A stretch of 64,000 nt of DNA from Thermoflavifilum sp. (lineage in GTDB: Bacteria; Bacteroidota; Bacteroidia; Chitinophagales; Chitinophagaceae): contig NZ_CP063141.1 in assembly GCF_014961315.1 (NCBI RefSeq), positions 2,591,123 to 2,655,122 on the forward strand, written 5' to 3'. Shown piece after piece: positions 10,445-59,170 of this stretch (position 1 is the stretch's first letter; each line of letters starts with the position of its first letter). Made by a program: the position numbers and the translations under genes. Below the pieces are notes generated by a model. It was given only the letters and a program-made list of their open reading frames with translations. It had not been told where the DNA came from and made no database searches.

Positions 10445-11664
10445 TATACACCCTGCTGATGGAGCATTTTTCTGCGGGTGATTTCTTGTTGAATCAACCT
10501 CAATTCCCGACTGGTTTGTCCGGCCACAGATGTATTTTCCTGCGCACGGCGCATCAGGTATGGAATCACATCTTCCAGCGGACCATAAGGAAGATATTTA
10601 CAAACCCGATATCCATGCCTGGAAAGATTAAAACTGATATGATCGCTCATGCCATAGAGTTGTGAAAAATATACATGTGGATGATCAGGAGCGATTTGTT
10701 TTTCTTCCATCAGCTGAATGGCCAGCTGACAACTTTTCTCATTGTGGGTGGCTATGCAACAGCAAACATCTTGAAGATGAGCCAGACAATATTGAATGGC
10801 TTCGTTATAATCCTCATCCGTGCGATTTTTATTTGCATGTACAGGACTGGGATATCCTTTTTCAACAGCCCGCTTTCGTTCTTTCTCCAGATAAGCTCCG
10901 CGCACCAGTTTGGCTCCAAGTACGAATGCTTTTTCCTTTGCTTCCAGAATATGGGATTTTAATACCTCAAGCCGATCCGTGCGATAAAGTTGATAGGTTT
11001 GAAAAAGTACGGGCTTTTGTCGATTATAGGATTGCATCAACTGCATAACACATGCATCAATCGGCGATTGAATCCAGCTTTCTTCTGCATCGACCATCAC
11101 GCCAATATGATGCTTGGTAGCCTCCTGCACAATGCGCTCCAATCGTTGGCAAGCGCGCTGCCATTCCGCCTTTTCTGATTCAGTAAGGTTTTGCCGCTCA
11201 TGCAATTTTTCCAGCAATTGTGTACGTGCCAGTCCTGTCATTTTCACGGCAATAAACGGAATATTGGGTTTGCGCGTCGCATAGGTGATCATGCGAACAT
11301 ATTCCGCACAGGTGTGTTCAAATACCTCTTCTGTTTCTTTCCCTTCCACGCCATAATCTAAAATGATGTGCATGCCTGCGTGAGCGAGTCGATCTGCAGT
11401 TTGCATCACATGCTCAAGTGTTTCCCCTCCACAAAATTGTTTGTACAGGGTATCATAGATCCACTTGCGAACGGGCAAATGCAAACGAATCACAACAGGA
11501 ATCAAATATTTCGCAAGATGCGTGAGCCATCCCAGATTCATCAGCCAGAATAACCAGTACATGCGGCTTAATTCGCGATCATCGCGGAAAGAAAAAGCAG
11601 CAGCCGTGTCATCGAAAGATACACGCGGAGAAGTAACTGACATACCAAGCAGGCTTTGCAGCAA
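10441..11664 (-). CDS. proline dehydrogenase family protein
   Basis: 407 aa. The overall pattern (..HIILDYGVEG.., VKMTGL.., VMVDAEESW.., LVRGAY.E.E, ATHN) is typical of monofunctional PutA-like proline dehydrogenases of Bacteroidota. Confidence 0.8.
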   Translation of the reverse strand: MLQSLLGMSVTSPRVSFDDTAAAFSFRDDRELSRMYWLFWLMNLGWLTHLAKYLIPVVIRLHLPVRKWIYDTLYKQFCGGETLEHVMQTADRLAHAGMHIILDYGVEGKETEEVFEHTCAEYVRMITYATRKPNIPFIAVKMTGLARTQLLEKLHERQNLTESEKAEWQRACQRLERIVQEATKHHIGVMVDAEESWIQSPIDACVMQLMQSYNRQKPVLFQTYQLYRTDRLEVLKSHILEAKEKAFVLGAKLVRGAYLEKERKRAVEKGYPSPVHANKNRTDEDYNEAIQYCLAHLQDVCCCIATHNEKSCQLAIQLMEEKQIAPDHPHVYFSQLYGMSDHISFNLSRHGYRVCKYLPYGPLEDVIPYLMRRAQENTSVAGQTSRELRLIQQEITRRKMLHQQGVY

Positions 11665-36656: not shown

Positions 36657-37604
36657 TCATCCTGCATGTTTTTCAACCTTCACCATGCGAATATTTCGCT
36701 GGAGGCCCTGCCAGCCTGCACGCTTCAGGGCCGATCGGCCGAAGATCTCTACAAATTTTTCTTCCGTAAGCCTTTCCCAGTCGGCGGTACGAAAATTCAA
36801 TATTTCCGGCAGGGGAGTGAAAGCCGGCTCTGTTGCGGGTTTGCTGAAGCGGTTCCAGGGACAAACATCCTGGCAGATATCACAGCCGAATATCCAGTTT
36901 TGCCATTTTCCTTCGGCCTCGGCAGGCATCATGTGTTCCCGGAGTTCGATAGTATAGTACGAAATACATCGACTGGCGTCGATCACCTTATCGGGCAGGA
37001 TGGCCTGCGTTGGACAGGCATCGATGCAGCGGGTACAACTACCGCAATAATCTCTGGCAAAGGGATCATCATATTCCAGCTGCAGATCAGTAATCAGCGT
37101 GGCAATAAACAGAAATGAACCCTGCCTGCGTGTGAGCAAATTCCCGTTTTTACCAATCCAGCCCAATCCCGAGCGTACAGCCCAGGCGCGCTCCAGCACC
37201 GGCCCACTGTCCACAAAGCCCCGACCTTCAATTTCACCAACCTGCTCGCGCAGGCTTTTTAAAAAAATTTTCAACTTCTTTTTAATAACCCGATGATAAT
37301 CTTCACCATAAGCATATTTTGCAACCTGATAACCATCCGCTCGTTGCTTTTGAGCAGGATAGTAGTTCATGAGCAGGGTGATTACCGATTTCGCTCCGGG
37401 CACCAGTTTCCGGGGATCAATACGCAGATCAAAATACCGCTCCATATACGCCATTGTACCATGATAACCCTTGCTGAGCCAGGCTTGCAACCTTCGGGCA
37501 TCCTCACTCAACTGGGTTGCACGGGCAATGCCACAATAATCAAAACCCAGCGCACGGGCCAGTTGCTTCACGACAGCCGTATGTTTTGCCTCAACCGGAT
37601 TCAT
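36657..37604 (-). CDS. queG: tRNA epoxyqueuosine reductase
   Basis: 315 aa. Two 4Fe-4S ferredoxin motifs (CGSCTRCIDACP, CDICQDVCPWN) in the QueG context, with C-terminal HEAT-like repeats. Confidence 0.9.
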   Translation of the reverse strand: MNPVEAKHTAVVKQLARALGFDYCGIARATQLSEDARRLQAWLSKGYHGTMAYMERYFDLRIDPRKLVPGAKSVITLLMNYYPAQKQRADGYQVAKYAYGEDYHRVIKKKLKIFLKSLREQVGEIEGRGFVDSGPVLERAWAVRSGLGWIGKNGNLLTRRQGSFLFIATLITDLQLEYDDPFARDYCGSCTRCIDACPTQAILPDKVIDASRCISYYTIELREHMMPAEAEGKWQNWIFGCDICQDVCPWNRFSKPATEPAFTPLPEILNFRTADWERLTEEKFVEIFGRSALKRAGWQGLQRNIRMVKVEKHAG

Positions 37605-37918
37605 AGCTTTTCAATATACAAAAGTAGATATCCTGCTCTATGTGCTGATCAAAAGCCTGTGATGGTTGTGGCATGGAACCGATATGAACGGGAGTTTAGC
37701 TTCGTGTAAGTATGCTGCCACATCGCTATGGGCGAAAAGGAGCCGAACATCCTTTAAAGAACCGCGGAGATGAACAAATCGGAAAAATTAACAGTTAGGC
37801 ACCGCATGGAGCTGAAATTCAGGCAGGGAAAGCAATCGCGATATGACATCCTTTCGGAATTGAAACAGCTGGAGTTAAATTTGATGCATTCAGGTAAGTT
37901 TTTTAAAAAAGTCGGAAT

Positions 37919-40561
37919 ATGAATTTGAATGAATTCACCATTAAGTCACAGGAGACGATTCAAAAAGCTCAACAGCTGGCTTTTGAAGCACGGAACCCGG
38001 CCATCGAAACGGGACATTTGCTGAAAGCCTTGCTGGATGAGAATCCAGATACCATGGAATACTTACTGAAGAAAAATGAGGTCAATCTCAATTTTCTCCA
38101 AGCCCGACTGAACGATATCCTGAAACGCTATCCCAGATTGGAATCAGGCGAGGGTGGCCAGACGATCAGTCGTGATTTGAACAATGCCCTGATGCGGGCT
38201 TCCACGCTTATCAAAGAATTCAAGGATGAGTTTGTGAGTGTCGAACACCTGTTGCTTGCGCTGCTGATGGGCAATGACGATGTTGCCAGCTTGCTGAAAG
38301 ATGCAGGCATGACGGAAAAGGGTTTACGTGTAGCTATCGCCGATTTACGCAAGGGAAGCACCGTAACCAGTCAGACGGCCGAATCGCAGTTCAATGCCCT
38401 GCAAAAATATGCCCGCAACCTGAACGAGCTGGCCGCAGCAGGTAAACTGGATCCGGTCATCGGCCGCGACGAAGAAATCCGCCGCACCCTGCACATTCTT
38501 TCCCGGCGTACGAAAAACAATCCTATCCTGGTGGGCGAGCCTGGCGTGGGGAAAACGGCTATCGTGGAAGGGCTGGCCCATCGCATCATCAATGGCGACG
38601 TGCCGGAGAACCTGAAAACCAAAGTTATCTATGCGCTTGATATGGGCGCCCTTATGGCCGGCGCTAAATATCGTGGCGAATTTGAGGAACGCCTGAAAGC
38701 CGTGATCAAAGAAGTTACCGAAAGCAACGGCGAGGTGATTCTCTTTATCGATGAAATCCATACGCTGGTGGGCGCCGGAGCCATGGAAGGGGCCATGGAT
38801 GCCGCCAACATCATGAAGCCGGCACTGGCTCGAGGTGAATTGCGGGCGATAGGTGCCACAACATTAAACGAGTACCAGAAATATTTCGAACGCGACAAAG
38901 CACTGGAACGTCGCTTCCAGAAAGTGATGATCGACGAGCCCAGCGTAGAAGATGCGATATCTATTCTACGTGGCTTGAAGGATCGCTACGAAACCCATCA
39001 TCACGTCCGCATTAAAGATGAAGCGATCATCGCAGCCGTGGAACTGTCACATCGATATATAACCGATCGGTTTTTGCCGGATAAGGCCATAGATTTGATA
39101 GATGAAGCTGCCGCAAAGCTCAGGCTGGAAATGAATTCCATGCCGGAAGAATTAGATGAACTGGAAAGAAAAATCAGGCAGCTGGAAATTGAGCGTGAAG
39201 CCATTAAGCGGGAAAACGATCAACAAAAACTTGAAGAACTGAGTCGCGAAATCGCCGAACTTTCAGAACAACGAAATGCCCTGAAGGCTAAATGGCAGCA
39301 GGAAAAAGAAATTGTCGATAAAATTCAATCGGCCAAAGCCACAATCGAGAATTTGAAAATTGAAGCCGAGCAGGCCGAACGTAACGGCGATTATGGCCGT
39401 GTGGCTGAAATTCGTTACGGAAGGATTCGTGAACAGGAAAACCTGGTGAAACAATACACGCAGGAACTGGAAAAACTTTCGGCCGATAAAAGATTACTGA
39501 AAGAAGAAGTTGACGCCGAAGATATTGCAGAAATTGTGTCAAAAGCAACCGGCATTCCCGTAACACGCATGATGCAAAGTGAAAAAGAAAAACTCTTGCA
39601 CCTGGAAGACGAATTGCACAAGCGCGTAGTAGGCCAGGATGAGGCCATTGAAGCCGTAGCCAACGCCATTCGTAGAAGCCGTGCAGGGTTGCAGGACGAG
39701 CGCAGACCCATCGGTTCCTTCATCTTTCTCGGTACCACGGGCGTAGGAAAAACGGAACTGGCCAAGGCGCTGGCCGAATGTCTGTTTGATGATGAGCGCA
39801 TGATGACCCGCATCGACATGAGCGAGTATCAGGAAAAACACACCGTTAGCCGCCTTATTGGTGCACCTCCCGGATATGTAGGTTACGAAGAAGGGGGACA
39901 ACTCACCGAGGCGGTGCGCCGCAAGCCCTATTCGGTGATTTTGCTGGATGAGATTGAAAAGGCACATCCCGATGTCTGGAATATTCTGCTCCAGGTGCTG
40001 GACGATGGTCGCTTAACCGATAATAAAGGTCGTGTCGTGAATTTCAAAAATACCATTATCATCATGACCAGCAACCTCGGAAGCCATATCATCCAGGAAA
40101 ACTTTAATCAGCTCACGGATGATAATAAAGAAGAAATCATAGAACGCACCCGGGCCGAAGTCATGGCATTACTTCGCCAGACGATAAGGCCTGAATTCCT
40201 GAATCGGATCGATGAAATCATCCTCTTCCAGCCACTCATGAAAGAACAGATTCGCGAAATCGTGAATATCCAGCTCAATCACCTGCAGGAACAGATGCAG
40301 AAGAACGGCTATCAGGTAGATTTCACCGATTACCTGATCGACTACCTCTCTGTGGCTGGATATGATCCTCAGTTTGGAGCGCGGCCGCTCAAACGGGTCA
40401 TTCAAAAAGAAATTGTCAACCCCCTGAGCAAAAAAATAATAGCCGGCGAAATTGAGAAAAACAAACCCGTGCTCATCGACGTGTTCGATGGCGTGGTGGT
40501 GTTCCGTACCAATCACCACGAGCACGCATCCGTGGAATCCACAGGCCACGCTGTTCGATAA
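37919..40561 (+). CDS. clpB: ATP-dependent chaperone ClpB
   Basis: 880 aa. Clp_N repeats, two AAA+ modules (Walker [10 protein letters not shown] and GTTGVGKTE), and a long coiled-coil middle domain. A TAAATTTG box at 37876-37883 is a plausible -7 promoter element. Confidence 0.97.
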
Positions 40562-40603
40562 AACGGAATAGAAGAATTACCTGGCAACCGCTCTCATACA
40601 AAA

Positions 40604-40629
40604 AGCCCCGCATCAAGCGGGGTTTTTTG
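40604..40629 (+). terminator. intrinsic terminator of clpB
   Basis: agccccgc / gcggggtt stem with a tcaa loop, followed by a T6 run. Confidence 0.8.
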
Positions 40630-41142
40630 TTAATTCAATTTTCACAGATGGCGAAAAAATTTTTTTAAAAAAAATTTGAAAATATCATTTCATTACATAT
40701 CTTTAAGCTGTCATTTGAGATAAAGTTGTTATTTAACCAAACCATTGCCTATGAAAAACCAGCTCTCCTGGATAGTTATACCCATTTTGATCATCTTTTC
40801 CCCTCTCATAAGCTGGAATGATATTCATCTCCCGGGAACGGGCTGGATGCCTGTTCCCCTGGATGACGAACCCTATGACCATATCCGGAAAAACCCCCTT
40901 TATGGGTATGTTGCCTGTCAAAAACAACCTGTAAGGAAACGAGTGTGGGCTTTCTGATTGAGGGGAAGGCTCATGATTAAAGGGTTACTGAACACCCGGT
41001 ATAAGTCTTTATACCGGGGCTATTTTAACCTGAAAATCCGGCGAATCCTCTCAAAACGACATCGGCATTAAACATATGGATTCGCATACCAGATATTGAG
41101 AAATTCCGAGCGTGCGTTGACCTGTTTTAACCTGAAAAGATG

Positions 41143-41174
41143 AGCGGGGCTACAAAAGCCCCCATTTTATTTTT
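41143..41174. terminator. hairpin terminator, probably bidirectional, serving the DUF3606-like gene
   Basis: ggggct (41146-41151) pairs with agcccc (41157-41162). The + strand has T-rich attttattttt downstream and is A-rich upstream. It lies 10-40 nt beyond the stop of the minus-strand gene at 41184. Confidence 0.5.
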
Positions 41175-41183
41175 CCTTGAACC

Positions 41184-41402
41184 CTATTCAGGAGAAGCAG
41201 CTGTAAATTGCCTGCCAGGATGCCGACAGATATATTTCTCAACCTCGGCTACAACGGTCGAGCCCACTGCCTGAATGGTGGCCTGTAGCTCATCCAGCGT
41301 CATACGATATCGCTCAAGCCAGTAGGCCGCCGTGAGTGGGTCATCAAGTTGAATACGCGCCCCATCCCGGGTATTGGAAAAAGATACAATATTCCTTTCC
41401 AT
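41184..41402 (-). CDS. DUF3606-like small protein
   Basis: 72 aa. The ..RIQLDDPLTAAYWLERYRMTLDELQATIQAVGSTVVAEVEKYI pattern resembles DUF3606 (xxVNxxDxxEVxYWxxxxGxSxxxLxxAVxxVG). From memory of the family. Confidence 0.5.
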   Translation of the reverse strand: MERNIVSFSNTRDGARIQLDDPLTAAYWLERYRMTLDELQATIQAVGSTVVAEVEKYICRHPGRQFTAASPE

Positions 41403-41694
41403 AGCCGTAAGGTTTAATGGTTGTGAAAAAAATGCCGGCGGTGAGCTGAGAAGGAGTACCTAGCTGAATGAACTTAATCCCTTTTCAAAGTTAACTACTT
41501 CTGTACAGAAAAAATATTTTTTTAAAGTAAAAATTTTTTGAAATTCAAATTGCGTAATGATTACACAATCATGTTCGTATCAAAAACGCAGGTAGAAAAA
41601 TGAAAAAACAAGGAGGTGTTGAATCATCATGCCATGTACATCCTGTTTATGAAAATGATCTACATCAAATTTTTGAAAAAAGTTTGTGCTTCTC

Positions 41695-43335
41695 TTATTC
41701 TCGTATGAATACTTGTTCAGGCTTCAGGGGTTCAGATTGAATAACCCTGTCGGGCAGACTCGCCGGTATGTATATCTGGCTGCAATTTGTACCCGATATA
41801 ACAAGTTGTGAAGTTGATGTTGATGAAAAAGAAAACCCGGTTAAATCAATATCCGCTGCATGCTCCAGCGTTATCAGTGGTGAAATTGCGTTTTTGATTT
41901 CTACATTTCTGAAAGCGATATTTTTTACGAAAGCAAGTTGCATTCCCGCATCGGCTTGCAGATGCATATCGGTAAAAAATATGCGTTCCACGGGCATTTC
42001 TGGAAGGCCACGCATGACAATTGCTGAAGCTGCACCACGCACCTGAATATCGCTGAGATGAAAGTCTGTAAAACGAGGCGTTTCGGCTGTTACAGGTCTG
42101 GCCAGGGTATCTATTGATGATGATTGTTCATAATAGGTATCAAATAAAATAGCTTCGTGGGCAATATCATGCATGTAAATACGGTCGATATAAATATCCC
42201 GTACCCAGCCGCCGCTGCCGCGCCTGCTCTTGATACGGATGCCGATATCGGTATTGATGAAATCACAATTGGTTACATAAATGTTTTTGATGCCACCATC
42301 TGTATTGCTCCCGATGACAAATCCACCATGGCCATGATACACAATACAATCGGCTATCAACACATTTTGTAATGCCGCAGAAGAATCGGCGTAACGACTG
42401 GGACTCGATTTCATGCAGATGCCATCATCGCCGGCATTTACTGTGCAGCGGTAAATAATGATATGCTTTCCTCCGCTGATATCGATGCCATCGCCATTCT
42501 GTGCCCACCACTCATTATTCACCTTCACATCTTTAATCATCACCTGTTCACAATAATTAGGGTAAAGTGCAAACTTAGGTGAGTTTTTCAGGGTTATGCC
42601 TTCAATCCATACATTTTTGCAACGCACCAGCAACACCATATAAGGACGCATATAGTCTCTTGCAGGCAGAAAATCGGCCGCCGTGAGTTTCTTACCGGAT
42701 TGCTTTAATTGTTTCAGGTATTGTTCGCCATCGCGTGCTTCAGCCGTAGGCCACCACATGTTTCCATTATCACTGAGCACTCCTCCTTTTTTCAACAAAT
42801 CTTTCCATTGTGCAGCCGTTTGTTTTTCTTTTTTCACGGGTCGCCAGCTATCACCCGACCCATCAATGATTCCTTCTCCTGTAATTGCCACATCTTCTAA
42901 ATCATAGCCCGAGATCGGTGAAGCTACCACAAAGCTGGAAGAACGAGGGGGTTGAATGATGGGATACTGGCTGTGATCCGGAGTAAACAATAATATCGCT
43001 CCCCTATCGAGATGAAGCTCAATGTGGCTGCGAAGCGTTATCGGACCTGTAAGCCACAGTCCCGGCGGAACCACAATTACACCTCCACCAGCTGCTGCAC
43101 AGCTATCAATAGCCTGCTGAATAAAATGCGTGTTTAAGGTCTGCCCATCAGGGCGCGCACCGAATTGAACAATATTGAAAACACGTTCGGGTATCACGGG
43201 TTTTTCCCAGAGCGAAAAAGAAAACGGAGCAGCATGCACATAATCCGCAAGGCTGCGTTCATGCACAATTCCCTGCGCGTACCCGGCAGCAGAAAAACTG
43301 ATTAAACAGAAGAATAAGCAAAGATGTTTCATACC
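41695..43335 (-). CDS. glycoside hydrolase family 28 (polygalacturonase-like)
   Basis: GH28 motifs NGDGIDI, GDDGICMKS, GHGGFVIGS and RIKS, with a parallel beta-helix repeat pattern. Signal peptide MKHLCLFFCLISFSAAGYAQG. Start taken at that ATG. Confidence 0.85.
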   Translation of the reverse strand, partial: GMKHLCLFFCLISFSAAGYAQGIVHERSLADYVHAAPFSFSLWEKPVIPERVFNIVQFGARPDGQTLNTHFIQQAIDSCAAAGGGVIVVPPGLWLTGPITLRSHIELHLDRGAILLFTPDHSQYPIIQPPRSSSFVVASPISGYDLEDVAITGEGIIDGSGDSWRPVKKEKQTAAQWKDLLKKGGVLSDNGNMWWPTAEARDGEQYLKQLKQSGKKLTAADFLPARDYMRPYMVLLVRCKNVWIEGITLKNSPKFALYPNYCEQVMIKDVKVNNEWWAQNGDGIDISGGKHIIIYRCTVNAGDDGICMKSSPSRYADSSAALQNVLIADCIVYHGHGGFVIGSNTDGGIKNIYVTNCDFINTDIGIRIKSRRGSGGWVRDIYIDRIYMHDIAHEAILFDTYYEQSSSIDTLARPVTAETPRFTDFHLSDIQVRGAASAIVMRGLPEMPVERIFFTDMHLQADAGMQLAFVKNIAFRNVEIKNAISPLITLEHAADIDLTGFSFSSTSTSQLVISGTNCSQIYIPASLPDRVIQSEPLKPEQVFIRE

Positions 43336-43468
43336 ATAACTACGTTTATGCAATGGATTTCAAAACTAAGCAAATCAACTAAATTTTATACATGATTAAC
43401 GATTCATTTTAGGCTTCAGCGTATGCATAGAGGTTTTCAAATGTATAAAATGCTTTACCTTAGTACGC

Positions 43469-45364
43469 ATGAAATCAATGCTATACATGAAATCACGTTT
43501 ATCCTTTTCGTTCATCCTGTGCTTGATGCTGGCCCTATACAAATGGGCATCGGCACAGGATACCCTACCCTTACCCCGGAATGTTGCCATTGCTTATGAA
43601 AAGGGAACGCGAAATAATAATGGTCAACCGGGCGTACATTACTGGCAAAACTTCGCCAGTTATCATATTAACGTGCATTTCACACCGGATACAAGACTTA
43701 TCTGGGGAAAAGAAAACATTTTGTATATCAATAACAGTCCGGATACCTTATCTTATTTCTGGTTCAAACTGTATCCGAATTTTTACCAGCGCGGAGCGGT
43801 ACGAAACACCGCAGTGCTTCCGCAGGACCTTACGGATGGCGTGCAAATAGGAAGCTATGCAATAGATGGCGTGCCACAGGATGCAGATCGACTCAACATC
43901 CGGGGAACGAATATGATTATGCCGGCTCCAAGGCCCTTGCTACCGCACGATTCTGTACGGATTGAAATAGCGTTCAGTTATGTGTTAAACAAAACATCGC
44001 ATCAGCGGACAGGTGAAATTGAAGACGGTGCTTATTTTATCGCGTATTTCTTCCCCCGACTGGCTGTGTATGATGATATTGACGGATGGAATACCTTTCC
44101 TTACAATGGACTGCAGGAGTTTTACAATGATTTCTGCGATTTTGATGTACAGATTCATGTGCCGGATGGATACGTAGTCTGGGCAACGGGCAACCTCCTG
44201 AATGCTGATGAAGTGTTGCAACCGCAGATTGTGCAGCGCCTTCATTTAGCTGAGCAAGAAGATGAAATACGCTTTGTGATTGATAGCATTGACCTGCAAC
44301 AGAAAAATGTAACCCAGCATCATCCCGTTAATACATGGCATTATCAGGCAAATGATGTTACCGATTTCGTATTTGCCACCAGCAATCGTTATGTCTGGCA
44401 ATCGACCAGCCTGATTGTGGATTCAACAACAGGTCGAAGAACCCGTGTCGACGCCGTATATGACCTCCGGCATAAAGATTATGAAGAAGTGATTGATTTT
44501 GCCCGTAAAACCGTAAAGGGCATCAGCTACTATTTTCCACACTGGCCATATCCCTATCCGCATGAAACCGTAGTCGATGGACTGGACCAGATGGAATATC
44601 CCATGATGGTAAACGATAATCCACTAAGTAATCGCGCATCAACAATTGAATTAACCGATCATGAAATTTTTCATACCCTGTTTCCTTTTTTCATGGGCAC
44701 AAACGAAACCAAATATGCCTGGATGGATGAAGGATGGGCAACACTGGGTGAATGGATCTTAACACCCTATATTGACAGTACCATACAGGATACTTACGGC
44801 ATACAGGCCTACGATCATTTTGCCGGAACAGAAGTGGACTTACCCATAATGACGCCGAGTACACAGGAAGAAGGAACGGATTATTATTTAAATTCCTATC
44901 CCAAGCCCGCGCTCGGATATTTGTATGTACGCGATATGCTGGGCCATGCCCTATTTGAAAAAGCCCTGCATCATTACATGCAAACCTGGCACGGCAAGCA
45001 TCCTATTCCGTATGATTTTTTTAATGCTATGAATGCGGGTGCAGGCAAAAACTTAAACTGGTTCTGGAAAAAATGGTTCTTTGATCCGGGATTTCCCGAC
45101 CTGGCTATCGATCGGGTCATGCATCATGGCAATCAATATCGAGTGGTGATTCGTGCAGTAGGTAATAAACCCGTGCCGATTGACTTGAAAGCATATTTGC
45201 AAAATGGCGATAGTATACAGATACATAGAGACATATCATGCTGGGAAAAGGGTAATCGGGAGGTGCTTATCCCCATCAAAAGTTCGGTTCGCATTACCCG
45301 CCTGGTATTAGGTGGTCTGTATGATGCAGATGTAAATAAATCCAATAATACCTACACCTTTTAA
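43469..45364 (+). CDS. M1-family zinc metallopeptidase
   Basis: HEIFH (HExxH) followed by WMDEGWATL, the gluzincin third ligand. Has a signal peptide ending ASAQ. Confidence 0.85.
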   Translation: MKSMLYMKSRLSFSFILCLMLALYKWASAQDTLPLPRNVAIAYEKGTRNNNGQPGVHYWQNFASYHINVHFTPDTRLIWGKENILYINNSPDTLSYFWFKLYPNFYQRGAVRNTAVLPQDLTDGVQIGSYAIDGVPQDADRLNIRGTNMIMPAPRPLLPHDSVRIEIAFSYVLNKTSHQRTGEIEDGAYFIAYFFPRLAVYDDIDGWNTFPYNGLQEFYNDFCDFDVQIHVPDGYVVWATGNLLNADEVLQPQIVQRLHLAEQEDEIRFVIDSIDLQQKNVTQHHPVNTWHYQANDVTDFVFATSNRYVWQSTSLIVDSTTGRRTRVDAVYDLRHKDYEEVIDFARKTVKGISYYFPHWPYPYPHETVVDGLDQMEYPMMVNDNPLSNRASTIELTDHEIFHTLFPFFMGTNETKYAWMDEGWATLGEWILTPYIDSTIQDTYGIQAYDHFAGTEVDLPIMTPSTQEEGTDYYLNSYPKPALGYLYVRDMLGHALFEKALHHYMQTWHGKHPIPYDFFNAMNAGAGKNLNWFWKKWFFDPGFPDLAIDRVMHHGNQYRVVIRAVGNKPVPIDLKAYLQNGDSIQIHRDISCWEKGNREVLIPIKSSVRITRLVLGGLYDADVNKSNNTYTF

Positions 45365-45462
45365 CCTGCTTCGCGTATTTACCAGACACCACATGATCGC
45401 CAGGGAAGCCATACATGCTAAAAACGGCGTTATTGCTATCTTTGCGGAAATCAGCAACACGT

Positions 45463-47262
45463 ATGCCGCGTTTGGAGACGATTCGTAATTTTTGCATCAT
45501 TGCCCATATTGATCATGGCAAAAGCACGCTGGCCGATCGCCTGCTGGAATATACCCATACACTCTCAGCGCGCGAAATGCAGGAGCAGGTGCTGGACGAC
45601 ATGGAACTGGAGCGGGAAAAAGGCATTACCATCAAGAGCCACGCAATTCAAATGCAATATGCCTATGGGGAACAAACCTATACCCTGAATCTGATTGATA
45701 CCCCGGGGCATGTAGATTTTTCTTATGAAGTATCGCGCGCACTTGCCGCATGTGAAGGGGCGCTATTGCTCGTAGATGCCACACAGGGTATTCAGGCGCA
45801 AACCATATCCAACCTGTATCTGGCACTGGATCATGATCTGGAAATCATCCCGGTCATTAATAAAATTGATATGGAAGGTGCGATGATTGAAGAAGTTAAA
45901 GAACAGATCATCGATCTGATTGGCTGCCGGGAGCAGGATATTTTGCTGGCATCGGCCCGCACGGGTGAGGGAGTGGAAGAGATTCTGAAAGCTATCGTGG
46001 AAAAAATACCGCCCCCTGAGGGGGATCCGGATGCGCCTTTACAGGCGTTGATTTTCGACAGTATGTATAATTCCTTTCGCGGAGTGGTAGCTTATTACCG
46101 GGTGTTCAACGGCACCCTGCGAAAAGGCGATAAAGTAAAATTTGTGAACACGGGCCGGGAATATGATGCCGATGAGGTGGGTATCCTTCGCCTGCGGCTG
46201 GAGCCACGCGATCAAATCAGTGCGGGAAATGTAGGTTACATTATCACAGGCATTAAATCGGCCAGTGAGGTACGTGTAGGTGATACCATCACGCTGGTGA
46301 GCAATCCCTGCAAAGAAGCCATCAAAGGCTTTGAAGAAGTAAAGCCCATGGTATTTGCCGGCATTTTTCCCGTGAACACAGAAGATTATGAAGAGCTACG
46401 CGATTGTATGGAAAAACTAAAGCTCAATGATGCAGCCCTGACCTTTGAGCCAGAAACCTCACAGGCACTGGGATTTGGATTTCGTTGTGGATTCCTGGGC
46501 ATGCTGCACATGGAGATTGTGCAGGAACGTCTTGAACGCGAGTTTCACCAGAGTGTAATCACCACCGTACCCAACGTAAGCTTTATTGCCTACACCACAA
46601 AAGGCGAAAAAATCATCGTGAATAATCCGTCTGAAATGCCCGACCCCAGCCGGCTTGATAGGGTAGAGGAACCATTTATTCGCGCACAAATCATTACCAA
46701 ACCCGAATATATTGGCAACATTATGACGCTTTGTCTGGGCAAACGCGGTACACTCATCAACCAGCATTATTTAACCCCCACACGCGTGGAACTCATTTTT
46801 GAAATGCCACTTACCGAAATTGTGTTTGATTTTTACGATAAACTCAAAAGCCAGACCCGCGGCTATGCTTCATTCGATTACCATCCGATCGGTTATCGGG
46901 AGAGTGATATCGTGAAAATGGATATTTTGTTAAATGGCGATAAGGTAGATGCCCTCAGCGCATTGATTCATCGCAGCCGTGCACAGGAGTTGGGCCGCAA
47001 ACTTTGCGAGAAACTGAAAGAATTATTGCCCCGTCAACAGTTCCAGATTGCTATTCAGGCCGCCATCGGTTCTAAAATCATTGCCCGGGAAAACATCAGT
47101 GCCCTGCGCAAGGATGTCACCGCCAAATGTTACGGTGGTGATATTACACGAAAACGCAAACTGCTGGAAAAACAAAAAGAAGGGAAGAAACGTATGCGGC
47201 AGATCGGCAGCGTGGAAGTCCCTCAGGAAGCATTTTTGGCTGTGTTGAAAATAAATGAATAA
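45463..47262 (+). CDS. lepA: translation elongation factor 4
   Basis: [30 protein letters not shown] and NKID GTPase motifs, plus the LepA-specific C-terminus. Start moved to ATG 45463 ([10 protein letters not shown]). Confidence 0.95.
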
Positions 47263-47284
47263 AACGGGAAGATTAAATACGGTT

Positions 47285-47563
47285 CTAATCCCAGCATGTA
47301 TCAAAAAGAATATATTTCACAACCGTAGCCACAAGAATGCCTCCAACCAGCAAAATCCTGTTCCATTGTGCGAATTTAAAACGAATCACTTGCAAGGCTT
47401 TTGCAATATGCTTTTCTACTGTAGAAACAGAAATCTGCATCCGTTGTGCAATTTCTCTATAAGATAATTGTTCTTCTCTACTTAAAAGAAAAGCCTCGCG
47501 GCATTGGGGAGAAAGAGAAGCTATGGCTTCTTGCAGAAAAAGAATTATTTTATTCAGATACAA
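47285..47563 (-). pseudogene. 3' fragment (region 4) of an ECF-type sigma-70 factor, fused to 8 codons derived from the insertion
   Basis: ..FLQEAIASLSPQCREAFLLSREEQLSYREIAQRMQISVSTVEKHIAKALQVIRFKF is a sigma-70 region 4 HTH. Regions 1 and 2 are missing here and lie 1.1 kb away (48604-48990). The first 8 codons (MYLNKIIL) lie in the inserted DNA. Confidence 0.8.
47499..47539. repeat. left copy of a perfect 41-bp direct repeat
   Basis: cggcattggggagaaagagaagctatggcttcttgcagaaa is identical at 48629-48669. Bases on both sides of each copy differ. Confidence 0.95.
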
Positions 47564-47582
47564 TGATTAATGTGACAGGATT

Positions 47583-47831
47583 CTAACTATTTTCTGACTT
47601 ATGGTTTCTCTCTTTTAGCTTCAAAACTAAATTTCGAACTGAAAATATAGCGCCTATGAACAATACTATTGCTAAAATAATAAACGAAGTCTTATCCCAT
47701 TCACCAATTATTATAAGGCGTACAAAGAAAAATATGTATAAAGCTACGGATAGAATCCACAATACCTTTAATAAATATGATAAGTTAGGAGGCATACTAA
47801 GCTGCTTTTTAATCAAAATACAAAAAATCAC
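47583..47831 (-). CDS. small 2-TM membrane protein, candidate immunity protein
   Basis: 82 aa. Two hydrophobic helices (LLKVLWILSVALYIFFFVRLIII, SFIILAIVLFIGAIFSV) and a basic C-tail. Lies 74 bp downstream of the second peptide gene on the same strand. Function inferred from position only. Confidence 0.55.
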   Translation of the reverse strand: MIFCILIKKQLSMPPNLSYLLKVLWILSVALYIFFFVRLIIIGEWDKTSFIILAIVLFIGAIFSVRNLVLKLKERNHKSENS

Positions 47832-47905
47832 ATTCCATGATTAAATATTCATGAATTTGGAACTAATACTTCTCTTAAGGCAACACTTATATTCATTGCT
47901 TATTT

Positions 47906-48103
47906 CTAATCTGTCGCATGTGCTATTGCATACACTTCACAAGCAACGGTACCTGCTATTAAAACCGCTGCGCCAACCCCGGTCAAGGCTAAAAAACTTC
48001 CCACTAATTCAAGAGCACCCACTGCAGCACAGGCTCCATTCCAAAAAGGATCAGTTTTGCCGCCTACAATGTTTACCATTTCTTGATTTGATAATGTTTT
48101 CAT
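47906..48103 (-). CDS. double-glycine-leader bacteriocin-like peptide (paralog 2)
   Basis: MKTLSNQEMVNIVGG|KTDPFWNGACAAVGALELVGSFLALTGVGAAVLIAGTVACEVYAIAHATD. 15-aa GG leader and a Gly/Ala-rich hydrophobic core with 2 Cys. Confidence 0.8.
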   Translation of the reverse strand: MKTLSNQEMVNIVGGKTDPFWNGACAAVGALELVGSFLALTGVGAAVLIAGTVACEVYAIAHATD

Positions 48104-48182
48104 AACTGCATGTTTTAAATATTAATAAATAATTTCCTGGGATCTAATTAATTGATTTCAATTAATACCTCACGATAATACC

Positions 48183-48374
48183 TTACGAAGGACCACAACC
48201 ATCTGCTAATCCTGCTATACACACCACACCTGTTGCTCCTGCCAAAGGGGCAAAGATGGTTGAAAAGGCTAAAATTACGGTCGCTGTACACATGGCGCCT
48301 GTAAAAGCCTGGCATTTAGGATCTGTCGTTCCTCCTTCCACCCTTTCCATCTGTTCAAAGCTTAATGTTTTCAT
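48183..48374 (-). CDS. double-glycine-leader bacteriocin-like peptide (paralog 1)
   Basis: MKTLSFEQMERVEGG|TTDPKCQAFTGAMCTATVILAFSTIFAPLAGATGVVCIAGLADGCGPS. The same MKTLS..QEM..V.GG.TDP leader as paralog 2, and a core with 4 Cys. Confidence 0.8.
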   Translation of the reverse strand: MKTLSFEQMERVEGGTTDPKCQAFTGAMCTATVILAFSTIFAPLAGATGVVCIAGLADGCGPS

Positions 48375-48396
48375 GACTTTAAAATTTTAAAAGTAG

Positions 48397-48414
48397 CCTT
48401 TCAATATTGAAAGG
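48397..48414. promoter_or_regulatory. perfect 18-bp palindrome upstream of peptide gene 1 (candidate operator)
   Basis: cctttcaat|attgaaagg, lying 23-40 bp upstream of the ATG at 48374 (minus strand). Confidence 0.4.
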
Positions 48415-48467
48415 TAATGTAAAATTGAAAAGGATCTTTTAAATTTACAACAAGCTGACCTTATAAT

Positions 48468-48486
48468 TTATAACTTAAAGTTATAA
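48468..48486. promoter_or_regulatory. perfect 9-1-9 palindrome in the divergent intergenic region (candidate operator)
   Basis: ttataactt a aagttataa, located between the peptide operon and the HTH remnant. Confidence 0.35.
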
Positions 48487-48674
48487 TTTTTTCATTAAAT
48501 CTCCTATTTTCTCATGAAAACACCTCATCCACCAAAAAATCTAAAAAGCAGTTTCTGTCGCTGGCACAACGTATTTTGCAATACCGGTTGCAGCGGGAAT
48601 TTACGCAAAGTGTTGTGGCTGCGTATCTCGGCATTGGGGAGAAAGAGAAGCTATGGCTTCTTGCAGAAATGTAG
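48474..48674 (+). pseudogene. remnant of an XRE-type HTH regulator gene (frameshifted and 3'-truncated)
   Basis: This frame reads ..KKSKKQFLSLAQRILQYRLQREFTQSVVAAYLGI, an XRE-like helix-turn-helix N-terminus, then runs into the repeat and stops at 48672-48674. The only ATG (48514, MKTPHPP) is in another frame and could be joined by a 1-nt change in the A6 run at 48534-48539. Confidence 0.4.
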
Positions 48675-48990
48675 CCATTGCTTTTTCTGATAAGCTTTCA
48701 TCAACTGATGGTTGATTCATGCCTGTCGATAATTCCCTAATTTTATTTTGAATATATTTCCGATTCCTTTCAGAACGTAAAATATATAAAATTTTATTTC
48801 GGAGTGTCGCATAAAGATAAGCCTGTATGTTCCCATGACTATCCAGCTGATTAGCCTTTTAAAGAAGAAGGGGCTTAAATCCCGAATCCATGAAAAAGTA
48901 TATCGGGCATTCTATCCGGCAAAAGCGATATTCCCTATATATTAAAATTCTTTGAAACTTGATCTTTAATCCCCTAACGTTCCTCTGTGC
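48604..48990 (-). pseudogene. 5' fragment (region 2 and linker) of the same ECF-type sigma-70 gene, with an in-frame stop
   Basis: Minus-strand frame reads ..KANQLDSHGNIQAYLYATLRNKILYILRSERNRKYIQNKIRELSTGMNQPSVDESLSEKAMATFLQEAIASLSPQC, then RDTQPQHFA* (stop at 48601-48603). An in-frame TAA at 48859-48861 interrupts the region-2 part, and I see no usable start codon. The upstream end near 48990 is approximate. Confidence 0.7.
48629..48669. repeat. right copy of the perfect 41-bp direct repeat
   Basis: Identical to 47499-47539. Confidence 0.95.
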
Positions 48991-49022
48991 TATCTTTCGG
49001 AATTAATGTTTTCTTTGAAAAA

Positions 49023-49913
49023 TCAATCGGAAGGGGGATAGGAGTGGGGCCCTGATTTTCGGGAAATACTTTTGCTCACATGTACCCATTTGCCATTCTT
49101 CCATTTAAAACCTTCATAATTGCCATCCGGTACATACGTATTTTTTTTCTCGGGTTCATGATGCAGCGGCACCAATTCATCATATACAATCATTTTCAAT
49201 TCATCATCATAATTCATACCTGCATCTCCATCTTTTTTATATTCCAGTACAAAACGATTCCGATCAGCACCAGGAATGGAATCTTCAGCAAAACTGAAAA
49301 TAGGCGCACCGAATACAGGCTCGCCATGAGGGAAAGTAAGCGGCTCCAGAATCTTCTTATTGCTTAACAATGAATTTCCATTAAAACCAAATAAAGTGTA
49401 ATATTTCTGATTCTTAAAACGGGTTTCTATCAATCGATAATAAATACAACCGATCCATCCACGCGGACCGGTAATTGTATCCTCCAGATGATAGGTGAAT
49501 TCAGAATTATCGAACAAGGGGAATAACTTCAGCTGTCCATCTCGCGTATTCATTTGAATAGCCCCATAATAGCGATAAGAGCCAAAGCTACGTGGAAATT
49601 GCCAGCTGAAAACACGAAAGCTGCTATCCGGTGCATATAGAATCGATATTTGGCGTAAAGAATCAAACGGATAATAAAATGAACCCCGAATTTTTAATGC
49701 ATTCACCAGATGCGGAATAAAGGCATCATTTGCTTGCCTGCGAATCAGTTCATCTCTGCCGTTTACCAGCGTGTATGCCAGTAATTTAAGGCTATCTTCT
49801 TTTTGTTGCAATTCTTTCCATGCAGTTGCAGATGGCCTGTATTGCCCTCTTGCCAGGGGTGCTATCAACATCAGCATAAGCGTGAGCCAGCATGTAAAAC
49901 CAACGCGCAACAT
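49023..49913 (-). CDS. hypothetical secreted protein
   Basis: 296 aa with signal peptide MLRVGFTCWLTLMLMLIAPLARGQ. No family recognised. Confidence 0.65.
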   Translation of the reverse strand: MLRVGFTCWLTLMLMLIAPLARGQYRPSATAWKELQQKEDSLKLLAYTLVNGRDELIRRQANDAFIPHLVNALKIRGSFYYPFDSLRQISILYAPDSSFRVFSWQFPRSFGSYRYYGAIQMNTRDGQLKLFPLFDNSEFTYHLEDTITGPRGWIGCIYYRLIETRFKNQKYYTLFGFNGNSLLSNKKILEPLTFPHGEPVFGAPIFSFAEDSIPGADRNRFVLEYKKDGDAGMNYDDELKMIVYDELVPLHHEPEKKNTYVPDGNYEGFKWKNGKWVHVSKSISRKSGPHSYPPSD

Positions 49914-57073: not shown

Positions 57074-57442
57074 ATGGATGAACAAATCACCATACGATTG
57101 AATGGGATGCGATTTCAGGGGGCTTATGGTTATTATCCGGAAGAGCAACGATTGCAGCAGGAATGGATTGTAGATGTCGCCGTTCACTTCCATGCCATTC
57201 ATGCGCTCAGGTCCCTGCACGACACTTTTGATTATGAGCTGATGTACCGCAGTGTGAAACAATTGATGGAACAACCCGCTGTGTTGATGGAAACCCGTGC
57301 CCAGGAAATAGCCGATATGCTTTATGATCAATTGCAACATGTGGCACATATTGAAGTGGTGATTACCAAACCCTGTCCGCTACTGGGGGGTGAGGTGGAA
57401 AGCTCGCAGGTACATATCAGCAGAACGTATGCCGAAAAGTAA
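57074..57442 (+). CDS. folB: dihydroneopterin aldolase
   Basis: 122 aa. ITIRLNGMRFQGAYGYYPEEQRLQQEWIVDVAV is the typical FolB N-terminal strand pattern. Confidence 0.85.
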   Translation: MDEQITIRLNGMRFQGAYGYYPEEQRLQQEWIVDVAVHFHAIHALRSLHDTFDYELMYRSVKQLMEQPAVLMETRAQEIADMLYDQLQHVAHIEVVITKPCPLLGGEVESSQVHISRTYAEK

Positions 57443-57454
57443 AAAACCTGTCCT

Positions 57455-58216
57455 GTGTATAAACATCTGCTCTGGTTGTCCGTCTGGCTTGGCTGGGCGA
57501 TGGCCGTAACGGCACAACAACCTTCTGCTTATCCAGAAGAACAACAGGCCGAGCAACTCGTTGCAGAAATGCATGAGCCTGAAGCCCTGAAGGCATACGA
57601 GCGGGCCATTGCACGATATCCACATGAAGCCAGGCTCTATGCACGGGCCAGCCTCCTGGCCTCGCATCTGGCATGGATTACCGATAATCCATCCGAAAAA
57701 AAATCCTGGTTGCAACTGGCTATTCCGTATGCCGATTCCGCCCGACGCCTGAATCCCAACCTGGTAGCAGGTAAACTGGCTCTTGCTGAAGCCGTATTTC
57801 AACAGGCTTTGCTTTCCGGCGCAAAGGAAAAAATCAATGGCTTGAAAACCGCGCTGACGGATGTGCAACAACTCCTTGCCACAGATAGCCTGAATGCACA
57901 GGCATGGAATCTGCTCGGACGCATTCAACTGCAACTGGCCAGCATGAGTGTGGTTGAACGTTCGGCTGCACGCCTGCTTTTTGGACAAATCCCCGAAGCC
58001 TCTTTGCCGCAGGCCATCCGCAGCTTTCAGCGCTGTATGCAACTTGACCGACGGATGATCAGCAACTACTACGATCTGGCAACCGCTTATCATGCAAATG
58101 GGCAGGACGAACTGGCCATCCAGACGGCTCAACAGGCCTTGAGGCTGAAAAGCATCAGACAGGGTGATGATGGATGGAAACAACGCTGCCAAACGCTTAT
58201 GAAAAGCCTGCAATGA
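57455..58216 (+). CDS. secreted helical-repeat (TPR-like) protein
   Basis: Signal peptide ..WAMAVTAQQ, then an alpha-helical repeat-like sequence (AYERAIARYP, DLATAYHANGQDELAIQTAQQAL). Confidence 0.6.
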   Translation: MYKHLLWLSVWLGWAMAVTAQQPSAYPEEQQAEQLVAEMHEPEALKAYERAIARYPHEARLYARASLLASHLAWITDNPSEKKSWLQLAIPYADSARRLNPNLVAGKLALAEAVFQQALLSGAKEKINGLKTALTDVQQLLATDSLNAQAWNLLGRIQLQLASMSVVERSAARLLFGQIPEASLPQAIRSFQRCMQLDRRMISNYYDLATAYHANGQDELAIQTAQQALRLKSIRQGDDGWKQRCQTLMKSLQ

Positions 58217-58264
58217 GATAGATTTGCAATAAATTTTTGTTATCATTGTGCTGAACCCATCATC

Positions 58265-59170
58265 ATGCAAATCACACCGGCTATACAACCTATTTATTCC
58301 GTTGACGACCCGATCATGCTTCAGGCCGACACCTCCTGCTGGACCCTGCTGGTCCAGGTGGGTGACCATCATCTTTCTTATGCAATAAAAAATCAAGACA
58401 ACACCTTCATCAACTTCAAAGCCTACCAGTTACCCTCCCATAACACATCCCGGGAACATGCCGTTGTAAGCGACGGAGACATACAATCCGGCGTAACAAG
58501 CACACTCGAATTTTTTCTGGAACATGATGGCGTATTGCGCTTGCCCTATCGGGACGTGCATATTGGCTATGATGATCCGGCCCATACAGTGGTACCCATT
58601 GATGCTTATGTGGAAGAAGCACAACAAGCATATTTTACCCCCATTGATCTACTAAAAGCGGATGATATCGTGCAGCGCGATCGGGTTGAAGACTGCGCAG
58701 CTTTTAACCTTTTTGCTGTAGAAGCTCATTTCTTGAATTTGCTGAGAAAGGAGTTTCGCAAATTTCACCTGCATCATATTTCGACTGCCTTTCTACAGGC
58801 TATTTTTAAACTCTACCCCGACAGGCGCGGGGAACAATTGTTTATCTGTTTTCATCAGCATCATGCCTACTTTCTGGCAAGACGACACGAACAGTTGCTT
58901 TATTTTCACCGTCTGACATTTACATCAGAAACCGATGTGCTTTATCATGTGCTGGCTGTGGTGAAACATTTTCAAATGGATTTATCGACCATGCGATGTG
59001 TGTTAGGGGGTGAAATTACCCGTCAATCCAGGCTTTACGAGCTGCTTTATGCTTATATTCCGATTATCCAGTGGCTAAGCCGTCCCCGACCTTTTGGATA
59101 TGTGGAAGCGTTCACCCATTATCCCGGTCATTTCTTTTTCTTAAACCTTGCACTGGGCTTATGCGAATAA
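58265..59170 (+). CDS. DUF3822-like protein
   Basis: 301 aa. Assignment rests mainly on the conserved Bacteroidota neighbourhood directly upstream of rsmD-coaD, from memory. Confidence 0.5.
   Translation: MQITPAIQPIYSVDDPIMLQADTSCWTLLVQVGDHHLSYAIKNQDNTFINFKAYQLPSHNTSREHAVVSDGDIQSGVTSTLEFFLEHDGVLRLPYRDVHIGYDDPAHTVVPIDAYVEEAQQAYFTPIDLLKADDIVQRDRVEDCAAFNLFAVEAHFLNLLRKEFRKFHLHHISTAFLQAIFKLYPDRRGEQLFICFHQHHAYFLARRHEQLLYFHRLTFTSETDVLYHVLAVVKHFQMDLSTMRCVLGGEITRQSRLYELLYAYIPIIQWLSRPRPFGYVEAFTHYPGHFFFLNLALGLCE

Follow-up and report, generated by a model that had tools for sequence, protein, structure and literature searches.

We analysed a stretch of 64,000 nt of the Thermoflavifilum sp. (Chitinophagaceae) chromosome, hereafter the window (NCBI RefSeq assembly GCF_014961315.1, contig NZ_CP063141.1, positions 2,591,123 to 2,655,122 of the forward strand), and describe here a small island of peptide genes and gene pieces that lies in it between a conserved gene of 296 amino acids (aa) (49023-49913, minus strand) and lepA (45415..47262, plus strand). 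The 296-aa gene bounds the island in all relatives, and lepA, which is also conserved and whose homologues carry LepA_C and related domains, bounds it on the other side. Inside the island a 41-bp sequence (CGGCATTGGGGAGAAAGAGAAGCTATGGCTTCTTGCAGAAA) is present in exactly two copies, a left one at 47499-47539 and a right one at 48629-48669, which match exactly. A preliminary description of this stretch, made from the letters alone, had reported this pair of perfect direct repeats, and we confirm it. No third copy with three or fewer mismatches was found in the 64-kb window, nor any in 100 shuffles, and the window contains no other noteworthy family of long direct repeats. Beyond the two copies the similarity runs on for just 2 of 3 bases, on one side. 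A small palindrome, AGAAGC-CATA-GCTTCT, can be read directly inside the 41-mer. The 1,089 bp between the copies have a GC content of 34.5% compared with 47.1% for the whole window, in line with the AT-richness noted earlier, and they contain genes for two small peptides, pep63 and pep65, and for a small membrane protein on the minus strand, and on the plus strand the start of a helix-turn-helix (HTH) gene that runs into the right 41-mer.

Both 41-mers belong to pieces of a gene for an extracytoplasmic function (ECF) sigma factor, which reads on the minus strand with the linker and region 2.4 above the right copy and region 4 below the left copy. For comparison we used relatives that are metagenome contigs, found by protein and contig look-ups, and the informative loci among them are labelled L001 and so on; in a search of species-representative genomes with the full-length sigma, the closest match had 56% identity. 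The locus L001 carries the sigma gene uninterrupted and at full length, with a single 41-mer, beside FecR-SusC-SusD, which is the arrangement that the preliminary description had proposed to look for in relatives. This sigma matches TIGR02985 with 142.9 bits (cutoff 126.4) and has a TAA nonsense codon at position 157. Sigma relic 1 (48629..48860, minus strand) is the mid part of the gene, about codons 63-139 of the L001 gene; it includes the right 41-mer, is cut at both ends, and is 98.7% identical to L001 10185-10419. Sigma relic 2 (47285..47539, minus strand) is the 3′ part, with region 4 and a hydrophobic C-terminal tail, and is 5′-truncated at the start of the 41-mer; it matches Pfam Sigma70_r4_2 (E=1.7e-17) and is 95–96% identical to L001 and L002. 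When one repeat and the insert (1,130 bp) are removed in silico, a single continuous minus-strand frame results. The earlier claim that such a removal restores the sigma open reading frame (ORF) therefore stands for the continuity of the frame and fails for the completeness of the gene, because the restored ORF is 5′-truncated, lacking the start codon and the first 62 codons (regions 2.1–2.3, by comparison with L001), and a stop codon lies immediately upstream of 48860/48861, where the sigma sequence ends.

Three junctions delimit these pieces. At J1 (48860/48861) the homology to the full-length L001 sigma ends at 48860, and the following 48861..49022 is a non-sigma spacer up to the 296-aa gene; J1 is also present in L071, L108 and L111. 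J3 (47539/47540) is the outer edge of the left 41-mer, where the 5′ break of the second partial sigma copy is joined to the AT-rich end of the cassette, and it is common to L003, L004, L005, L029, L030, L031, L110 and L116–L119. J2 (48628/48629) is the inner edge of the right 41-mer, and here the sequence of an XRE-type HTH gene switches into sigma at the heptamer AATGCCG (minus strand; 48629..48635), which is present in both the sigma and the HTH gene. The HTH remnant (48514..48635, plus strand) retains ~42 of the 79 codons, counted from the start, and has lost one further nt near 48529; its identity to the corresponding 5′ part of the complete gene in L002 and L109 is 96%, and the 79-aa protein of that gene matches Pfam HTH_3 (E=3e-9). 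The two partners at J2 are sigma ...CCCCAATGCCG/CGAGG and HTH ...GGAAATGCCG/AGATAC, and the extended match is 9/10. In L002, L109 and L110 the sigma 3′ end is followed by a tail of ~60 nt and then by the complete, convergent HTH_3 gene. Compared with L002, the window lacks ~374 bp between the AATGCCG heptamers; what is missing is the remainder of the sigma 3′ part, the tail, and the HTH gene's 3′ half. J2 is thus a deletion junction, and its direction is clear, since two recognised domains are cut through in the truncated version. Six relatives (L046, L108, L109, L110, L111 and L112) share J2, which is therefore old; L046 has the HTH truncation without the 1-nt frameshift of the window. An origin of the HTH C-terminus from the 3′ end of lepA was considered and rejected, as the HTH_3 match reaches residue 72 and the C-terminus looks native; clear sharing between the HTH gene and lepA is limited to the last ~26 nt. 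A word-indexed protein search with the 79-aa HTH protein gave no match.

The ~60-nt tail corresponds in the window to 47224..47284, which is the sigma–lepA intergenic sequence plus the last ~39 nt of lepA. It accompanies every sigma copy in the relatives, where it abuts the HTH gene and not lepA. The order of an island unit in the relatives is the sigma 3′ part with its tail, the convergent XRE/HTH gene, a divergent control region, a conserved double-glycine (GG) leader, and then variable cargo, which consists of one or more variable peptide cores with membrane or ATP-binding cassette (ABC) ‘immunity’ genes; each cassette is then followed by a 5′-truncated sigma copy whose break point differs each time. 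Three such 5′ truncation points were found, at 48860, at the equivalent of 48766, and at 48669, and the second of these lies after the cargo that we call cassette B in L002, L109, L110 and L112. In L109 and L110 a second microhomology deletion (CGCATACC, ~324 bp) has taken the FecR/sigma promoter region and the first ~41 sigma codons. L002 contains two tandem units of 3,702 bp (2.03 units) that differ at 6 positions, and each unit holds a fragment of sigma with the tail, the HTH gene coding for all 79 aa, a peptide with a GG leader, a duplicated transmembrane (TM) protein, an ABC ATPase and a permease; the cargo of these units defines cassette B. Hence cassette B is present twice in L002 and once in each of L109, L110 and L112. 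The third sigma copy of L002 bears the single-nucleotide polymorphism (SNP) of the chromosomal ‘sigma-mid’ copy. A reading of L002 as a circular plasmid was rejected, because its units differ and its third sigma copy is of the chromosomal sigma-mid type.

Whole arrays are contained on single contigs in L109 and L110, where three cassettes, A, B and C, occur. Along 14 kb of L110 the order is a FecR fragment, a 5′-deleted sigma, tail, HTH, cassette B, sigma middle, 41-mer and J2, followed by the HTH remnant, pep63, pep65, the small membrane protein gene (TM70), J3, 41-mer, the sigma C-terminal part (sigma C), tail, lepA and an M1 peptidase. The two 41-mers around the window-type cassette of L110 differ at 3 of 41 positions. 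Further upstream, L109 carries two additional cassettes, one of a third kind and one that repeats the window-type cassette. Its left end matches at 100% the end of the 2.49-Mb contig L111, where J1 lies beside the 296-aa gene. The stretch from the peptide genes through lepA is collinear between the window and L004 and L116–L119, and L046, L108 and L111 cover the right-hand junctions. The window thus holds the island in a compact form with one unit; in relatives the island extends to ~11 kb. In six loci (L005, L030 and L116–L119) the base after the left 41-mer is A (CCGAGAGG), as it is after the right copy (CCGAGATAC), and their repeat would be 44 bp long if their right copy were the ‘B’ allele of L046 and L108; this A may have come from a past conversion of one copy by the other.

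In the window, the sigma pieces and the HTH remnant are dead relics, because sigma copies carry nonsense codons or 1-nt deletions and the window HTH carries a frameshift, while the peptide and TM ORFs are intact. TAA nonsense codons occur in the sigma copies of L001, L003 and L031, those of L003 and L031 also have 1-nt deletions, and no intact gene of this sigma was found among the relatives recovered. The same CAA>TAA change (REIA*RMQ) is found in L001 at 10469-10471, in the sigma beside FecR/SusC/SusD, and in the sigma C relics of L003 and L031, which follow a peptide cassette. Such sharing across different contexts suggests conversion between sigma copies or their common descent.

We consider it very likely that the 41-bp repeat is the short surviving overlap of two partial ECF sigma copies in a variable, bacteriocin-like cassette island. 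The figure of 41 bp is the accidental distance between the illegitimate join J3 and the microhomology deletion J2, which are unrelated events. The second sigma copy starts at the first base of the 41-mer through the illegitimate join J3, and the first copy has lost everything after the last base of the 41-mer in the ~374-bp AATGCCG deletion, together with the tail and the HTH 3′ half, and, separately, its 5′ end at J1. Before the J2 deletion the repeat would have been ~316 bp long (47539-47224). The truncated copies themselves may reflect the arrival or duplication of cassette units that were anchored at one end through sigma homology and joined illegitimately at the other, which would be homology-facilitated illegitimate recombination or ‘displacement’ as proposed for Rhs, contact-dependent inhibition (CDI) and type VI secretion system (T6SS) arrays (PMC5361080, PMC3150448); an illegitimate tandem duplication could also have produced them. 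Later, the repeats would have become substrates for unequal crossover, and the conserved arms for allelic replacement. The comparison of loci establishes, at the level of sequence, two partial sigma copies, a microhomology deletion, variable truncation points, a change in copy number and a recent allelic replacement. The preliminary description had named a ‘duplication-insertion event’ as a fallback, and this came close to the truth.

The first of its proposals was an att-like event catalysed in trans, in which a discrete 1.09-kb cassette entered an intact sigma gene and the 41-mer is the att core or a long target-site duplication. Such an insertion would account for two perfect 41-bp direct repeats, for the uninterrupted sigma with a single 41-mer in L001, for AT-rich DNA that has no recombinase, and for the palindrome inside the 41-mer. 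The absence of a transposase or integrase among the ORFs of the insert was indeed borne out, no recombinase is present among the 30 large ORFs of the 64-kb window either, and the insert ends have no terminal inverted repeats (the best end-to-end alignment scores 6, compared with a shuffle mean of 6.75). A target-site duplication would flank an element with constant ends, whereas here the right end is an HTH gene cut at 7 nt of microhomology, with the absent half located beside a complete sigma 3′ end in relatives, and in L109 the same cassette is followed by just 8–9 nt of the 41-mer and then by different DNA. The segment is therefore not a discrete insert, since its right end is a truncated and frameshifted gene. 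An att core would be identical at both junctions in relatives, but the copies match at 41/41 positions in the window and at 38/41 in L110, the left copy of L003 and L031 has a 1-nt deletion, and sigma is broken elsewhere in other units. Moreover, the interrupted gene is itself a fragment, so excision gives no functional sigma. With its edges explained by an illegitimate join and a microhomology deletion, we regard site-specific insertion as very improbable. The skin element in the sigK gene of Bacillus has a recombinase gene of its own, and once the element is excised sigK is complete and functional again. As in skin, a sigma frame is interrupted here by foreign DNA between direct repeats; unlike skin, the island has no recombinase and the rebuilt ORF still lacks its 5′ codons.

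A Campbell-type integration would also give a sigma fragment, a unit and a sigma fragment in this layout, as a single crossover yields. In that scheme a circle made of a sigma fragment, tail, HTH and cassette would arise by recombination between sigma repeats and would integrate by RecA-dependent homologous recombination into a resident sigma copy, duplicating the shared segment. The tandem units of L002 suit it, as does an island far less diverged than its flanks (proportion of synonymous differences, pS, 0.05–0.075 compared with 0.34 for lepA), and if it were true the units would be recombinase-free mobile cassettes. We think it quite improbable, however, and it is not needed: the L002 units differ at 6 positions, its third sigma copy has the sigma-mid SNP, which would be expected if the tandem duplication was chromosomal but not if a multi-turn circle had integrated, functions for replication or transfer are absent, the circle would itself first require an illegitimate join, and J2 would still require a separate deletion. 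The SNP of this third copy and the copy number of cassette B are as unequal crossover between sigma repeats predicts, which argues against a free circle. The chance that the arrangement is an assembly artefact, a chimeric join of strain variants at a shared k-mer, appears minute. The region does tangle assembly graphs, and many contigs of relatives end near the 41-mers (L071 at 48637, L108 at 47555, L004 at 48499), but each of J1, J2 and J3 was assembled independently several times over, from different samples, the single contig L110 runs across both copies and lepA, and the 7 nt shared at J2 are too short for a k-mer join.

Several points weigh against the derivation of the repeat from two partial sigma copies. 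No contig has the predicted undeleted precursor, with the full HTH gene directly upstream of pep63, and this precursor is postulated from the cassette-B units together with L003 and L031, which have cassette A followed by sigma C, tail and the HTH 3′ end. J3 has no clear microhomology. The perfect repeats of the window, compared with 2–3 differences in relatives, need a recent conversion or a particular recombination history. The course of events could have been displacement, tandem duplication, or deletions that reduced a long array to a compact form. Finally, many contigs of the relatives end inside repeats, so some linkages are indirect.

Exchange of the island between lineages is apparent from its divergence. 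The window and L004 have no mismatch over 47224-48342 (1,119 nt), whereas the adjoining lepA is 86.6% identical; the left edge of this identical block is in the shared tail and the right edge is in the leader codons of pep63. More generally, organisms that are ~78–82% identical in flanking genes share the island at 94–100% identity. Thus the conserved arms, made up of the sigma relic and tail at one flank and of HTH gene, control region plus leader at the other, act at least passively as homology for cassette replacement. A stronger proposal is that these arms are retained as a recombinase-free cassette system, in which capture, amplification, deletion and exchange at lepA would proceed by host recombination alone, possibly via unit circles; we consider this unlikely, and if true it would amount to a functionally integron-like cassette platform without an integrase among Thermoflavifilum species. 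Over lepA and its upstream intergenic sequence (45256-47223) the window is ~85–87% identical to the lepA allele common to L004, L029 and L030 (~97%), and just beyond lepA (37241-45256) L030 and the window are 96.3% identical. Because the lepA of L030 diverges while the genes beyond it match the window at 96.3%, it seems that in one lineage lepA was itself exchanged by recombination, and that one boundary of the exchange was at the island tail (47223/4).

No published description of this island was found in the literature searched. It adds a case to a known kind of cassette array, from a host group new to that kind, and its repeated fragment comes from a regulator gene instead of the toxin gene. 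In the arrays of orphan Rhs/CDI toxin/immunity modules, for which ‘C-terminal displacement’ has been described (Poole et al. 2011, PMC3150448), there are likewise tandem variable cassettes, fragments of a conserved gene with varying lengths of homology and differing truncation points, and exchange between strains, and the repeats support recombination, amplification and deletion. Unlike in those arrays, the repeated fragment here is an ECF sigma regulator gene on the far side of the cassette and not the 5′ part of a toxin gene, and therefore no delivery protein gains a new toxin tip by recombination; the HTH gene, control region and leader codons form the conserved 5′ arm, and the cargo is small peptides with double-glycine leaders. 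For the effector–immunity modules of the Vibrio cholerae T6SS, sequential displacement through homology-facilitated illegitimate recombination was proposed (Kirchberger et al. 2017, PMC5361080). There, as proposed here, one end would be anchored in conserved sequence while the other is joined illegitimately, older genes would be pushed downstream and leave remnants, and ordinary homologous recombination would later carry complex arrays from strain to strain. The remnants there are orphan immunity genes, whereas here they are sigma and HTH pieces beside lepA, outside a secretion cluster, and in both cases the mechanism is deduced. The pneumococcal blp locus, which encodes class II double-glycine bacteriocins and has mosaic cassette content (PMC4517551), is similar in that peptides with LSxxE(L/M)xx(I/V)xGG leaders stand beside small membrane ‘immunity’ proteins and in that the content varies between strains at a fixed chromosomal site. 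In contrast to blp, no C39-peptidase ABC exporter or quorum-sensing genes were found in the window, its peptides fall below Pfam/NCBIfam thresholds, and the host belongs to a thermophilic lineage of Bacteroidota. The island is a clear natural example of the way in which ordinary recombination stacks, amplifies and prunes competition-gene cassettes and swaps them between lineages. It also calls for caution, because a long perfect repeat around recombinase-free DNA can mimic a new insertion mechanism, and here it is the accidental remainder of a segmental duplication trimmed by a microhomology deletion. Thermophilic Chitinophagaceae are little studied, and the island points to candidate peptide toxins and immunity genes in them.

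The two peptide genes and the small membrane-protein gene are intact, and they are probably the functional cargo. The gene pep63 (48183..48374, minus strand) encodes 63 aa with a double-glycine-type leader (MKTLSFEQMERVEGG) and a hydrophobic, Cys-containing core; its homology to the L002 unit stops at 48329, which is the predicted GG cleavage site. Its paralogue pep65 (47906..48103, minus strand) encodes 65 aa with the leader MKTLSNQEMVNIVGG, in which L-12, S-11, E-8, M-7, I-4, G-2 and G-1 can be assigned, and is 100% identical to NCBI QOR75852.1 from a Thermoflavifilum sp. metagenome-assembled genome (Chitinophagaceae). By direct reading both leaders fit the double-glycine consensus LSxxELxxIxGG. 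With curated models, pep65 missed the thresholds of Bacteriocin_IIc (19.1 bits, E=0.0013, compared with 27.1) and TIGR04149 (16.5 compared with 25), and pep63 matched no Pfam or NCBIfam family; likewise, no exact match came up for pep63, for the 92-aa sigma C ORF or for the 58-aa junction ORF. The third gene (47583..47831, minus strand) is an 82-aa ORF, or 70 aa from the ATG at 47795 as called in relatives, for a small two-helix membrane protein, a putative immunity protein. Judging from the GG-leader peptides, the adjacent small TM proteins and the ABC transporter, the cassettes may encode cognate toxins and immunity functions; no C39-peptidase ABC exporter was found among the large ORFs of the 64-kb window.

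The ORFs of pep63, pep65 and the TM protein are open in all 5–7 alleles. The pooled ratio of nonsynonymous to synonymous differences (pN/pS) is 0.34 for pep63, 0.77 for pep65 and 1.24 for the TM protein, compared with 0.02 for lepA, and these high cargo values fit diversifying or relaxed selection and are no proof of function. In one island allele (L046, L108 and L109) the pep63 leader ends in ...VERG and not ...VEGG, a change that should impair double-glycine processing. The divergent control region (48375..48513), situated between the HTH remnant and the genes for the peptides, contains a perfect 18-bp palindrome at 48397-48414 (CCTTTCAATATTGAAAGG) and a 12+12 palindrome at 48465-48489, and is kept upstream of a different cassette in L002. 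These palindromes are candidate operators of the now-dead HTH regulator. A scan of 46900-49300 against Rfam gave only chance-level matches, and a sigma-70 promoter and terminator scan, whose model does not cover Bacteroidota promoters, remained at background level. The 296-aa ORF that bounds the island and a 338-aa ORF further along the window (57380-58396, minus strand) have no significant Pfam/NCBIfam match.

The other cassettes show further small duplications. The third cassette, on the other strand of the array (L109 1722-2359, equivalent to L110 322-~960, minus strand), encodes a Cys-rich 82-aa peptide with no obvious GG leader and, adjacent to it, a membrane protein of 124 aa that arose by tandem duplication within the gene (165-nt repeat, 87% identity). 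Similarly, the 134-aa putative immunity gene of cassette B (L002 1026-1421 and 4728-5123) consists of tandem two-helix units of ~67 aa (195-nt repeat, 93.8%).

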